Source: a virus
DNA: 60,979 nucleotides
Direction: 5' to 3' (one strand)
Virus record (IMG/VR): IMGVR_UViG_3300027904_000002
Coordinates: 1 to 60,979 of that record
Under the pieces are notes generated by a model. It was given only the letters and a program-made list of their open reading frames with translations. It ran no database searches and was not told the DNA's origin. Both the position numbers and the translations under genes were made by a program. Positions 5,146 to 8,568 of the stretch are shown in pieces; within the stretch, counting starts at the first letter, position 1; every line of letters starts with the position of its first letter.

Positions 5146-5197
5146 TCAAAAATAAAAAGTGCCCGACATTTAACCTATGAGCCAATTAAATGTCGGG
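5146..5197 (-). terminator. Rho-independent terminator ending the tail-lysis-membrane operon
   Basis: 11-bp stem cccgacattta (5162-5172) / taaatgtcggg (5187-5197), followed on the minus strand by ctttttattttt. Confidence 0.75.
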
Positions 5198-5242
5198 GCT
5201 TTGAAAGGAGGTTGAGGCATGGACATATACTATTATAAATGA

Positions 5243-5839
5243 TTATTTATCATTAGTCAAATGCCTTGCGGTCGCTATTGCAAATAAATGAGCAATATTA
5301 TCCGATAATCTCGATACGTTATAAGAATCACAATCTAAAACGTCTTGTACCATTTTAAAAGAGCGACCTTCACGCCAGATATACTTATAAACGACTTTGA
5401 TAGAATCATCATCTTGTTCATTAACCAAATTCTCAAGTTCTTTTATGACAGGATGATTAGGGTCATTATTACGTATGTAATTCATTACTTCGGCATGTTT
5501 ACGTTCTTTTGACCATGCAAACAAAAACGTATCACTCACATTAAATCTATCTGTCAATACCAAAGCAAAAAATGCAGTTACCACTAACGATATAGTTATG
5601 TCAATATGTGCTATTGCAAATAACGATACAAACAATATTACGCTTGCGAAAAAGCACCTAATCGGGCATTTATAATGTTTAGTTTTTCCGCAAATATTTC
5701 TAACTACAAGAAAAAAGACCAAGATATATGCCACATACCTCCATGTAGGCAATATCCATAGTCCGATTGCTACTATTGTTGTTAACTCTATTCCAAACAG
5801 CAACAAGGCTTTCCAATATTTCTTAAACCACGCTCTCAT
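5243..5839 (-). CDS. Polytopic membrane protein with a cytoplasmic HTH-like C-terminal domain
   Basis: ATG 5839 (MRAWFKKYWK...) lies within ORF 5243..5920. There are about 4 hydrophobic segments. The C-terminus DSIKVVYKYIWREGRSFKMVQDVLDCDSYNVSRLSDNIAHL resembles sigma region-4/HTH. Confidence 0.65.
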   Translation of the reverse strand: MRAWFKKYWKALLLFGIELTTIVAIGLWILPTWRYVAYILVFFLVVRNICGKTKHYKCPIRCFFASVILFVSLFAIAHIDITISLVVTAFFALVLTDRFNVSDTFLFAWSKERKHAEVMNYIRNNDPNHPVIKELENLVNEQDDDSIKVVYKYIWREGRSFKMVQDVLDCDSYNVSRLSDNIAHLFAIATARHLTNDK

Positions 5840-5929: not shown

Positions 5930-6463
5930 TTAAACACCCCTTTCAATCATTGTTATAGGAATAATAAGTTGTACAGCAATTAATAAAATATTAAACATAA
6001 CGCAACTTATGTTACGAACTGTAACGCTCTTAATTTTGGGATTATCGCTTTTATCCCAAACAGATAAATATACTTTATATAATTTATTAATATGTTTTTT
6101 AAACACTGTTACACAAGCAAATAATGAAATCCACCCAAGTAACCATCCTAAAATTTCATTTGGTATCGCATAAAAAACGATTGTACCAACTATTACACTA
6201 ATTATTCCTGCTACAGTTATTAAAAATACATCTATAAAGTGTGAACGATATAATAACCATAAAGTTAAATACATTAAAGCAATAAAAATCAAAACTCCCC
6301 ACAACATAAACGGAATAAAAATCTTTATAAGAAAATTCGATAAAAATATAATCGCAATTAATAAAACACGTTTGTACTTAATGTTTTTTGCAAAAATAAG
6401 AAAAAGTCCATAATATAAACTTTCTGGTAGTAATCCTAAAAATATTCCCATTAAAATTTCCAT
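5930..6463 (-). CDS. Polytopic (about 6 TM) membrane protein
   Basis: ATG 6463 is preceded by gaggtggggtt. The sequence is almost entirely hydrophobic segments. Confidence 0.7.
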   Translation of the reverse strand: MEILMGIFLGLLPESLYYGLFLIFAKNIKYKRVLLIAIIFLSNFLIKIFIPFMLWGVLIFIALMYLTLWLLYRSHFIDVFLITVAGIISVIVGTIVFYAIPNEILGWLLGWISLFACVTVFKKHINKLYKVYLSVWDKSDNPKIKSVTVRNISCVMFNILLIAVQLIIPITMIERGV

Positions 6464-6609: not shown

Positions 6610-7446
6610 TTATGGAATTACTATGCGTTGCCCTATAGATATAACATTAGCATTTTTTATTTGAGGGTTAGCAGACATTATAGCGTTTACGGTAGTTGAA
6701 TACATACCGGCTATTCTGCTTAGATTTTCTCCTGCTGTGACAATGTGAGTACGTGTTGTAGGTTGAGTTTGTATCGGTGGTGGTATTGTAGTAGATGTCG
6801 GCACATTTATAATTTGTCCAATATCAATACGATTGATGTCACCGATTTGTCCGTTTAAATTCCACAATTCATCTGTTGTTAAATTAAAACGTCTTGCGAT
6901 TGCAGTAAACGTATCGCCACTTTGTACGATATATGTACCTGCTTGTGCAGGTGGTGTCGGATTAGGTTGTTGTGGTGTATTTGCATTTGCAAGTCTAACA
7001 GCTTCTTGCACTGCATTATTACCACGTTGCCACCAATCTCTGCTTGTTTGCAAACTTCTAAATCTGACTTCCATGCTGTTTATATAGTGCAAGCACATAT
7101 GAGAACCCTCTGAATTACGTCTTAAATCAGAAGTAAATATATTAAAAGAATTTGAAGCAACAACAACGCTGTGTGGCATGGTATGAATAGCACAAGCGGT
7201 TACATTATTACCCCATTGTAGTGTACAGGGAATCCAATTCCAAGACCAATTACCACCAGACCATCTTAGCAACCTCTCAGCGTCTTGTCGTGTTTTTGGC
7301 ATATAATCCGAATGATGATAGTTTTGTGGTGAACTTAATCTGATAATTACAGTTTCATTATTACGCAAGTTTCTTAATGTAGCGTCACCGTTTAAGCGTG
7401 GTGTCGCAGCGTTCATCTGTGCTATTGTCATTGCAGTTACGCTCAT
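6610..7446 (-). CDS. Putative endolysin: unassigned N-terminal catalytic domain plus two C-terminal LysM repeats
   Basis: LysM-like segments YIVQSGDTFTAIARRFNLTTDELWNLNG...IGQIINVP and HIVTAGENLSRIAGMYSTTVNAIMSANP...IGQRIVIP. The gene sits directly after the holin-like gene. Confidence 0.65.
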   Translation of the reverse strand: MSVTAMTIAQMNAATPRLNGDATLRNLRNNETVIIRLSSPQNYHHSDYMPKTRQDAERLLRWSGGNWSWNWIPCTLQWGNNVTACAIHTMPHSVVVASNSFNIFTSDLRRNSEGSHMCLHYINSMEVRFRSLQTSRDWWQRGNNAVQEAVRLANANTPQQPNPTPPAQAGTYIVQSGDTFTAIARRFNLTTDELWNLNGQIGDINRIDIGQIINVPTSTTIPPPIQTQPTTRTHIVTAGENLSRIAGMYSTTVNAIMSANPQIKNANVISIGQRIVIP

Positions 7447-7447
7447 A

Positions 7448-7684
7448 TTATTCTTCCTTTAATGTATCGTCAATATAGCTTCTATCTTTTCTGTTAAAAA
7501 AGTAACCAAACACCATTGTTGCAAACGGTACAAATATTTCAGACCCTATTCTCCCATCTATGAATCCCCAAAGCAAGCCGAAACATATTGCTAAAGATAT
7601 TATAGAGCGTACTTTCAATAACTCTATTATTTGATACCGTATGTGGTTTGTAAAAGTATATAAACATTTATGAATATTATTCAC
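7448..7684 (-). CDS. Putative holin (two TM segments, charged C-terminus)
   Basis: GTG 7684 lies 6 nt after SD ggagag. An alternative GTG at 7702 would overlap the REC gene. TM segments SIISLAICFGLLWGFIDG and IFVPFATMVFGYFF, then NRKDRSYIDDTLKEE. Its stop lies 1 nt before the lysin ATG. Confidence 0.6.
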   Translation of the reverse strand: MNNIHKCLYTFTNHIRYQIIELLKVRSIISLAICFGLLWGFIDGRIGSEIFVPFATMVFGYFFNRKDRSYIDDTLKEE

Positions 7685-7686
7685 TG

Positions 7687-8106
7687 TTAACTCTCCAAGC
7701 ACTCTGTAAATGTTTTAGCTTCATGTTTGTTTCTGTGTAATGCTAAATGCAGTTCAATTCGTCTTATCAATAATTCTTTTTTAAATGGTTTTCGTATATA
7801 GTCAACAGCACCACATTCAAATGCTTTGTATTCATCTTCAAAATCCGTTTGTCCAGATACCATTATTACAGGGATGTCAGCAAACTTGCTTTTTTTTAGC
7901 ATTGCAACCGCTTGAAATCCGTCTATTGCAGGCATTACGATATCCATAAGGATTAGGTCTATATTTTCTCTCTCAAGCACAGTAATCATATCGCTTGTGT
8001 TAGTGACTAAATACAAATTATAGTCATGCTCTAACATTGAACGAATTGCATTCAAATCAAACGGGTTATCATCAACAGCTAATAAAGCATTTTTCTTACT
8101 TTTCAC
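7687..8106 (-). CDS. Stand-alone response-regulator receiver (REC, CheY-like) domain protein
   Basis: 139 aa. LLAVDDN (D12, D13), DLILMDIVMPAIDG (D55), PVIMVSG (S84), DYIRKPF (K106-P107). No output domain. The GTG start overlaps the upstream stop (GTGA). Confidence 0.85.
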   Translation of the reverse strand: MKSKKNALLAVDDNPFDLNAIRSMLEHDYNLYLVTNTSDMITVLERENIDLILMDIVMPAIDGFQAVAMLKKSKFADIPVIMVSGQTDFEDEYKAFECGAVDYIRKPFKKELLIRRIELHLALHRNKHEAKTFTECLES

Positions 8107-8495
8107 TTTCTATCTTCCAGTTTTGTGAGAGTTCTTAAAACTTCGCTCATATCCCTTTCAAGAACCTTTATGATTGTGTTTAATCCCGATATAACTTGAG
8201 TATTGTTTGAAACTACTTCTAATACTTGACCCTCTCTTTGCAAATAAGCTACCTGTCTTTTTTCAGCAGCTTCGGATTCAATTTTAGCTTTTTCTTTTAT
8301 TGCTTCGGCTTCGATTTCTGCTATTTTTTCATCGCTGACTCTGCGTTCTTTTCGGTCTTTATACATTAAAAGAGATGGTAAGATTATGGCGATAGCGGCT
8401 ACAGCGATAATGAAAAAGAATATTAAATCACTTTCACTTTGTTTTGTGACTTCGTATAAAACATCCACAACCCCATAATCGCTGTCATACGTCAT
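8103..8495 (-). CDS. Membrane-anchored coiled-coil protein, first gene of the lysis cassette
   Basis: 130 aa. TM segment LIFFFIIAVAAIAIILPSLLMY, then a Glu/Lys/Ala heptad-rich region. Confidence 0.7.
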   Translation of the reverse strand: MTYDSDYGVVDVLYEVTKQSESDLIFFFIIAVAAIAIILPSLLMYKDRKERRVSDEKIAEIEAEAIKEKAKIESEAAEKRQVAYLQREGQVLEVVSNNTQVISGLNTIIKVLERDMSEVLRTLTKLEDRK

Positions 8496-8568
8496 TATTG
8501 ATTACCTGCCCTCTATATTGTCTCACAAAAATATTACCATATTTTATAGATATTGTAAATAATTATTT

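Follow-up and report, generated by a model that had tools for sequence, protein, structure and literature searches.

The window analysed here is the whole of IMG/VR virus record IMGVR_UViG_3300027904_000002 (positions 1 to 60,979; the same sequence as ENA ERZ27257344 k141_4891153), a nearly complete, ~61-kb phage-like contig with a G+C content of 36.6% that carries capsid, portal, tape-measure and tail genes. On its minus strand lies a stand-alone response-regulator receiver, REC, which is encoded together with a membrane protein that we call TM/CC, for its transmembrane (TM) segment and its coiled coil. Reading along this strand, tail-type genes, among them a gene for a 788 amino acid F5/8-type-C protein and an XkdX-family gene, are followed by TM/CC (130 amino acids), REC, a small hydrophobic protein and a 278 amino acid LysM protein. 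A first-pass annotation of this DNA, made from the letters alone, had placed three of the open reading frames (ORFs) at 8103..8495, 7687..8106 and 7448..7702, all on the minus strand, and they are found there. The features that matter most for the argument are:

8103..8495, minus strand: TM/CC, a 130 amino acid bitopic membrane/coiled-coil protein (hydropathy, charge and heptad analysis).
7687..8106, minus strand: REC, a stand-alone response-regulator receiver of 139 amino acids with a GTG start (Pfam, PDB alignments, conservation in the homolog P0002, and the ratio of nonsynonymous to synonymous substitution rates, dN/dS).
7687..8523, minus strand: the extent of the TM/CC+REC module (blastn against the phage contig L001, and sliding identity).
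7448..7684, minus strand: a holin-like small membrane protein (sequence and hydropathy).
6610..7446, minus strand: a presumed endolysin of 278 amino acids with a ~160 amino acid N-terminal domain and two LysM domains (LysM E=1e-25).
6964..7446, minus strand: the ~160 amino acid N-terminal domain of this lysin (conserved residues, no family match).

REC had been described as an intact receiver with the canonical residues and no output domain, and both the profile search that was proposed as a check and the alignments with solved structures bear this out. REC matches PF00072 with E=5.2e-25 and 88.2 bits, against a cutoff of 30.2, over profile positions 2-110 of 111, and 81 solved receivers in the PDB match it at E<=1e-8; the match is far beyond chance. 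In the PDB receiver alignments D12/D13, D55, S84 and K106-P107 fall in the canonical columns, with D53 of PleD aligned to D55, and Y103 takes the aromatic switch position (K-3). The acidic residues D12, D13 and D55 are invariant across all seven aligned homologs. P0002, a 137 amino acid protein of L001 and the only close homolog of REC, retains every catalytic and switch residue, including S84, Y103 and K106-P107, and with them the acceptor aspartate that the first-pass annotation had singled out. The REC ORF stops at residue 139, ~22 residues past α5, which leaves it without an output domain, and P0002 is built likewise. Judged by its residues, REC has everything that is needed for phosphoryl transfer and for a Ser/Tyr conformational switch, and it is predicted to be phosphorylatable, as was first proposed.

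The label 'CheY/Spo0F-like', which had also been given to REC, fits its architecture only. Its best family and structure matches are receivers of the PleD, CovR/VicR, CtrA and MtrA type, at 30-40% identity and far under the equivalog cutoffs; the top NCBIfam matches are the receivers of PleD, CtrA, MtrA and OmpR, the CheY_Halo model gives 62 bits against a cutoff of 200, and Spo0F is absent from the 60 best PDB matches. The nearest cellular homologs share 37-42% identity with REC, and one of them is encoded directly 3' of a hybrid histidine kinase and extends into a coiled-coil linker and further domains. Between the two phages, the tail of ~22 amino acids past α5 has diverged no more than the domain core, and it can be aligned with linker helices of P0003 and P0004, both cellular homologs. 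This fits an origin in which a receiver would have been captured from a multi-domain regulator, truncated, and then paired in trans with a coiled-coil protein.

The TM/CC protein has one transmembrane segment (residues 24-44), which is preceded by an acidic N-terminus (one K/R against six D/E) and followed by a K/R-rich juxtamembrane stretch, so that an N-out/C-in orientation is predicted. The predicted cytoplasmic part of ~86 amino acids starts as a charged helix and continues as a clean heptad coiled coil, and the whole sequence contains neither His nor Cys. The GTG start of REC (8106-8104) overlaps the TGA stop of TM/CC (8105-8103) as GTGA, just as had been noted. Both genes have a dN/dS of ~0.08 and a G+C content that matches the neighbouring genes. 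TM/CC could not be assigned to any Pfam, NCBIfam, PDB or PADLOC entry. The PspB (E=0.016) and TIGR04561 (E=0.002) models give matches far under their cutoffs, which were treated as composition effects. A programmed frameshift that would fuse TM/CC to REC was also considered and was rejected, since the junction contains no X_XXY_YYZ slippery heptamer in either phage.

Relatives of both genes were looked for by a word-indexed search of 5.8e9 proteins and by an exhaustive search of 1.84e9 (1.84 billion) representatives. Both searches return P0002 as the sole close homolog of REC, at 72-73% identity; beyond it, the exhaustive search contains nothing above ~45% identity to REC, and its other top matches are multi-receiver hybrid proteins. 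TM/CC occurs in only two copies among the 5.8e9 proteins, the window's own and that of L001. A further candidate instance, P0172, proved to be the JGI copy of the window itself with the GTG start translated as V, and neither REC nor TM/CC gave a match when IMG/VR was scanned with each protein alone.

L001 is a 52.6-kb phage contig from a sister sample to that of the window. Its gene order is that of the window, with TM/CC (93% identical) followed by REC, a small 2-TM protein and a LysM lysin (53% identical). The REC of L001 starts with an ATG in an ATGA overlap at the place of the window's GTGA, which supports the upstream GTG as the start of REC in the window. A blastn comparison of the two contigs gives, in this neighbourhood, one shared block of 838 nucleotides at 81.5% identity, which reaches from 28 nucleotides 5' of the TM/CC ATG to the REC stop, and the flanks on both sides, the upstream tail gene and the downstream holin-like gene, are not alignable. 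Within this block the divergence is uneven. Across the TM/CC-REC junction (window 7687..8495 against L001:9612-10414) the synonymous divergence dS is ~0.53 on one side and ~2.0 on the other while nucleotide identity drops from ~90% to ~68%, and this jump suggests that the module has a recombination breakpoint close to the boundary of its two genes.

A third phage, L005, stems from the sample that also gave the window. Its lysin belongs to the same family (56% identity) and is followed by the same two membrane proteins, and both TM/CC and REC are absent. In the slot upstream of its holin and lysin we find a 134 amino acid protein that starts with a coiled coil and has its transmembrane segment at the C-terminus, followed by a holin of the L001 type. 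Neither this protein nor TM/CC matches XhlA (PF10779) at E<=1. Since a different membrane-anchored coiled-coil protein occupies the same position, this may be a slot for lysis accessory proteins, and since L005 shares the lysin and has no REC, REC would be accessory to lysis at most. Whether relatives keep a receiver in this slot, a survey that had been suggested, therefore has two answers: L001 does, and L005 has its own coiled-coil membrane protein there.

Together these comparisons indicate that TM/CC and REC form a discrete, selected and exchangeable two-gene module. The first-pass annotation had tied the receiver to the holin and the lysin, a link that needs amending: the holin of L001 is non-homologous to that of the window, the lysin of L005 occurs without a receiver, and the conserved partner is TM/CC. 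Because TM/CC and REC travel as one block while the holins downstream of them are unrelated, the constant partner of REC is likely to be TM/CC and not a particular holin.

The genes that follow the module were first named holin and endolysin. The names agree with topology, position and the LysM domains; a holin family match and a family or fold match for the N-terminal domain of the lysin are both lacking. The holin-like protein has 78 amino acids if it starts from GTG 7684, which has a well-spaced ribosome-binding site (GGAGAG) and leaves a gap of 2 nucleotides after the REC stop, or 84 amino acids from GTG 7702, which gives a 16-nucleotide overlap with REC; the LysM protein starts 1 nucleotide past the stop of this gene, and the tight junctions that had been reported are thus confirmed. 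Two hydrophobic segments and a charged C-terminus predict a class-II-like N-in/C-in topology. The holin-like proteins of the window and of L001 match no Pfam, NCBIfam, holin-family or annotated phage-gene entry, and the only match of the window protein is phrog_13256, a family of unknown function (E=3e-4). The holin-like gene is also the swapped member of the region: L001:10421-10633 and L005:9819-10004 share one type, and 7448..7684 of the window encodes an unrelated 2-TM protein between conserved neighbours.

Five homologs of the lysin were found among the 5.8e9 proteins, and one of them has an SH3_3-like domain instead of LysM, an exchange of binding domains that looks like typical endolysin modularity. 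The N-terminal domain has the invariant residues H44 H45 S46 D47, C85 H88 H92 and H116 C118 H120, and no sequence match to it was found in Pfam, NCBIfam or PDB. A fold search with the full-length lysin model was swamped by LysM matches, and an AlphaFold2 model of the domain (predicted local distance difference test, pLDDT, 77; predicted template-modelling score, pTM, 0.79) gave no Foldseek match in PDB or BFVD. This domain may represent a novel type of catalytic domain; the Pfam scan of 100 ORFs of the window detected no further family of cell-wall hydrolases. A small 2-TM gene immediately upstream of the lysin and after the tail genes is a layout common to the window, L001 and L005, and from topology, position and the LysM domains the region is probably a phage lysis cassette.

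The features that lie beyond the lysin and upstream of TM/CC are:

5930..6463, minus strand: a conserved 177 amino acid protein (TM6) with 5-6 transmembrane segments, kept in L001 and L005.
5243..5839, minus strand: an AgrB-like membrane protein with four transmembrane segments and a soluble C-terminal domain of ~100 amino acids (Pfam AgrB).
5162..5197, minus strand: a terminator-like hairpin with a 14-bp stem followed by a T-run; the last gene before it is the AgrB-like gene.
8531..8559, minus strand: a promoter-like motif, TTTACA-17-TAATAT with a TG extension, in the 73-nucleotide gap 5' of TM/CC.

TM6 matches no family. In L005 its gene starts 2 nucleotides after the lysin stop, and with this spacing TM6 may belong to the lysis unit; it is probably in the same transcription unit as the lysin. 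The AgrB-like gene sits two genes after the lysin, and its three orthologs (window 5243..5839, L001:12198-12800 and L005:11484-12086) match Pfam AgrB with E=3.8e-4, 3.5e-5 and 1.2e-4, of which the match at 3.5e-5 reaches the cutoff. All three have an invariant H55 and C62, whose spacing we take to be that of the catalytic H77/C84 of S. aureus AgrB. No AgrD-like ORF adjoins the AgrB-like gene.

The hairpin at 5197..5162 probably ends a unit that consists of TM/CC, REC, holin, lysin, TM6 and the AgrB-like gene, and no terminator-like site is found between TM/CC and the AgrB-like gene. At the other end, promoter-like motifs are not more numerous in the region than expected from shuffled sequence, and the motif at 8559..8531 is a lead only. 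The spacer upstream of TM/CC in L001 is just 20 nucleotides long and holds no equivalent of the promoter-bearing spacer. REC is separated from the holin-like gene by only 2-6 nucleotides, with no terminator, in the window and in L001. As no terminator is present and L001 has no room for a separate promoter, the module would most simply be read together with the holin and lysin genes, and so late. The best promoter-like match of the region lies elsewhere, in 5162..5260 (minus strand): TTGACT-17-TATAAT (11 of 12 positions) overlaps the end of the AgrB-like gene and is followed within ~35 nucleotides by the hairpin with its 14-bp stem and T-run. This element could be a terminator alone, or could give a short transcript or attenuator.

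REC is the only receiver among the 100 ORFs of the window in the Pfam scan. The same ORFs contain no HisKA, HATPase_c or Hpt domain (Pfam, E<=1e-4), and because no kinase or Hpt protein is encoded in the window the phosphoryl donor for REC must come from the host. This host is probably a low-GC member of the Bacillota. The portal is only ~29% identical to the portals of Clostridioides difficile siphophages, scans of GTDB (185,579 species genomes) that used the portal or the lysin domain as query returned no relative, and the GenBank phage collection holds no near DNA match to the window. Neither an integrase nor a repressor domain of the HTH_3 (CI-like) type came up in the Pfam scan of the 100 ORFs. 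Other Pfam matches in the window include an FtsK/SpoIIIE-family protein, an NrdR-like zinc ribbon, a KaiC/AAA_25/DnaB_C-type ATPase, a Lar-like restriction-alleviation protein, an N6/N4 methylase, VRR-NUC and two NUMOD4/HNH_3 homing-endonuclease-like genes; nrdR is listed among the sporulation-associated gene classes of gut phages (PMC10294663).

The question that is raised by this arrangement is what a receiver with no kinase and no output domain does at the head of a lysis cassette. The reading that we favour, tentatively and with the odds somewhat against it, is that TM/CC and REC are an accessory module of the cassette and act as a host-driven, membrane-tethered phospho-switch that tunes lysis. 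Termination-reinitiation would keep the ratio of REC to TM/CC roughly fixed, and REC would dock on TM/CC at its cytoplasmic coiled coil, perhaps by way of the conserved helix past α5. TM/CC could then serve as an output domain in trans; in the nearest cellular homologs the same segment links to the output domain. D55 would receive its phosphoryl group from the host, be it from a histidine kinase in the membrane or from acetyl phosphate, and the phosphorylation state would alter the oligomeric or membrane behaviour of TM/CC. As a lysis accessory protein in an antiholin- or XhlA-like role, TM/CC would in this way shift the time of holin triggering with the physiological state of the host. Because the downstream holins of the two phages are unrelated, the effect should be exerted at the membrane or on TM/CC, and would involve no specific contact between REC and a holin. 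The more specific proposal, that REC reads the phosphorylation state of the host (from a sensor kinase or the acetyl-phosphate pool) and through TM/CC advances or delays the triggering of the holin, is unlikely.

Several points weigh against such a switch. The unrelated holins, together with the lack of a lysis-family signature in TM/CC, keep alive the idea that REC is a phosphate sink, and TM/CC resembles neither XhlA nor the slot protein of L005, nor any holin or antiholin that is known. The holin and endolysin assignments themselves come only from topology, position and the LysM domains, and unrelated cargo is often inserted where the tail genes give way to the lysis genes. L005 presumably lyses its host without the module, which would make the module dispensable. 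Both instances (n=2) come from one study's assemblies of uncultured phages.

The main rival is that TM/CC merely tethers REC near host sensor kinases, where REC would act as a phosphate sink or decoy that drains phosphoryl groups and silences a host response late in infection, with lysis timing itself not being the target; the kinases so drained could be envelope-stress kinases, LytS-type kinases, sporulation kinases or a defensive two-component system such as Detocs. We regard this as somewhat unlikely, though only slightly more so than the switch. A canonical receiver with no output domain and no kinase from the phage would suit a sink, the nearest cellular homologs are encoded beside a hybrid kinase, and the module occurs with two unrelated holins. 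Stand-alone receivers are described elsewhere as sinks or buffers (for example DtcB, bioRxiv 10.1101/2023.01.24.525353; PMC5964349; PMC3868531), and gut phages carry truncated regulators of the host phosphorelay, the effector-only spo0A homologs (PMC10294663). A sink that is co-transcribed with lysis genes would be expressed late, however, which is a poor time to reprogram transcription, sporulation or defence. REC moreover has no PADLOC or DtcB-like match and no specific resemblance to Spo0F, Spo0A or any one host pathway, and a protein as well conserved as TM/CC (93% identity) is probably not just a passive anchor. This conservation and the expected late co-expression speak for the phospho-switch rather than the sink. 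A different view of the same residues is that REC has become a phosphorylation-independent protein-binding adaptor similar to pseudo-receivers. Pseudo-receivers are common (PMC12632262), and a missing cognate kinase in cis would suit an adaptor. The catalytic and switch residues of REC are nevertheless all conserved, at 72% overall identity and under purifying selection, and this makes the adaptor very unlikely. Pseudo-receivers typically lose these residues.

Another hypothesis is that the module is cargo that concerns neither lysis nor host signalling, for instance a device for superinfection exclusion or inter-phage competition that has entered the variable junction between tail and lysis genes. 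It is very rare, it is a discrete mobile block with unrelated flanks, and L005 does without it; a promoter-like motif lies upstream of it in the window, and stand-alone receivers are found on other viral contigs outside lysis contexts. We still consider cargo improbable, as neither a terminator nor a spacer separates the module from the holin gene, the promoter-bearing spacer is missing in L001, and no defence family is matched. The lack of a detected integrase or CI-like repressor also argues against a moron that is expressed in lysogeny, as there would be no lysogen to express it. The AgrB-like gene raises a further option, in which REC would be one arm of an agr-like quorum-sensing circuit of the phage, with the AgrB-like and multi-TM proteins, that times lysis by population signals. 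The AgrB matches are weak but consistent in three orthologs, one of them at the Pfam cutoff and all with the invariant His/Cys pair, and the genes share a putative transcription unit that ends at the 5197..5162 hairpin. Such a circuit would need parts that we do not see, as there is no kinase domain in the window ORFs and no AgrD-like ORF beside the AgrB-like gene, and REC, having no LytTR output, is not AgrA-like. L005 also has the AgrB-like protein and TM6 with no REC, which shows the two modules to be independent, and we hold the circuit to be the most improbable of these options.

The significance of the module depends on which of these readings is right. Current views attribute the timing of lysis to the build-up of holin and the energisation of the membrane, and to our knowledge antiholins are its only known modulators. 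If the phospho-switch is real, the lysis clock would gain an input from host signalling or metabolism, which is a class of control that has not yet been described; if REC does read the state of the host, this would be the first case of two-component phospho-signalling that is wired directly, at the protein level, into a phage lysis clock. If REC is a sink, the phage would possess in it a compact means to silence one of the two-component systems of its host, a complement to the effector-only spo0A homologs. The module consists of two small genes that can be synthesized and tested in a model Gram-positive host. Its neighbours are of interest as well: the endolysin has what is possibly a new catalytic domain, and a protein that resembles AgrB is encoded among the lysis genes of a phage.

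The first-pass annotation knew of no lysis cassette that contains a receiver, and our surveys of the literature, IMG/VR and GenBank phages found none either. Receiver domains match six PHROGs, all of unknown function. In IMG/VR, 23 loci carry REC-like genes and 19 of the 23 are multi-domain; the stand-alone receivers (L012, L018, L023 and L027; 123-167 amino acids) have no lysis families among their neighbours, whose Pfam matches include Baseplate_J, Mu Gp48, integrase and helix-turn-helix proteins, and they indicate that phages carry stand-alone receivers repeatedly in contexts other than this one. The six GenBank 'phage' matches that were looked at, from among the best, are all multi-domain regulators of 239-818 amino acids on unverified scaffolds. 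No report of a phage-encoded receiver in a lysis cassette was found in the literature searched, with most subscription journals outside its coverage.

Among known lysis regions, the window resembles the PBSX/SPP1-type cassettes of Gram-positive hosts (XhlA-XhlB-XlyA), in which a membrane-anchored coiled-coil protein stands directly before holin and lysin and after the tail genes, and the XkdX-family gene upstream is a further likeness. The topology of TM/CC is the reverse of that of XhlA, as its transmembrane segment is N-terminal whereas XhlA has an N-terminal coiled coil and a C-terminal transmembrane segment, and we know of no receiver in such cassettes. The only established link between a two-component system and holin-like membrane proteins that we know of is LytSR with LrgAB/CidAB. 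LytSR works by transcription, through a chromosomal LytTR regulator, whereas in the window there is no DNA-binding domain and the receiver lies inside a phage cassette.

Detocs includes a stand-alone receiver 'buffer', DtcB, which is proposed to absorb phosphoryl groups (bioRxiv 10.1101/2023.01.24.525353). REC differs from it in that it has no DtcA/DtcC neighbours and is borne by a phage and not by a defence operon; the only PADLOC match is PDC-M60B (E=0.0019). The effector-only spo0A homologs of gut phages are thought to tap or bypass the host phosphorelay (PMC10294663). They keep the DNA-binding effector and drop the receiver, whereas the phage of the window keeps the receiver and has no effector, a mirror image; REC itself has no specific similarity to Spo0A. 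In architecture REC is like the single-domain response regulators, which can be sinks or hubs (PMC5964349, PMC3868531). CheY, Spo0F, DivK, MrrA, EpsW and the sink-type CheYs are likewise lone receivers with the full catalytic set, and they work by phosphorylation-dependent partner binding or as a phosphate sink or relay. Unlike them, REC belongs to a phage that supplies no kinase in cis; it is an ortholog of none of the named members, and it is paired with a novel membrane coiled-coil protein. The receiver domain itself is ordinary; its pairing with this membrane protein and its place in a lysis region are new.

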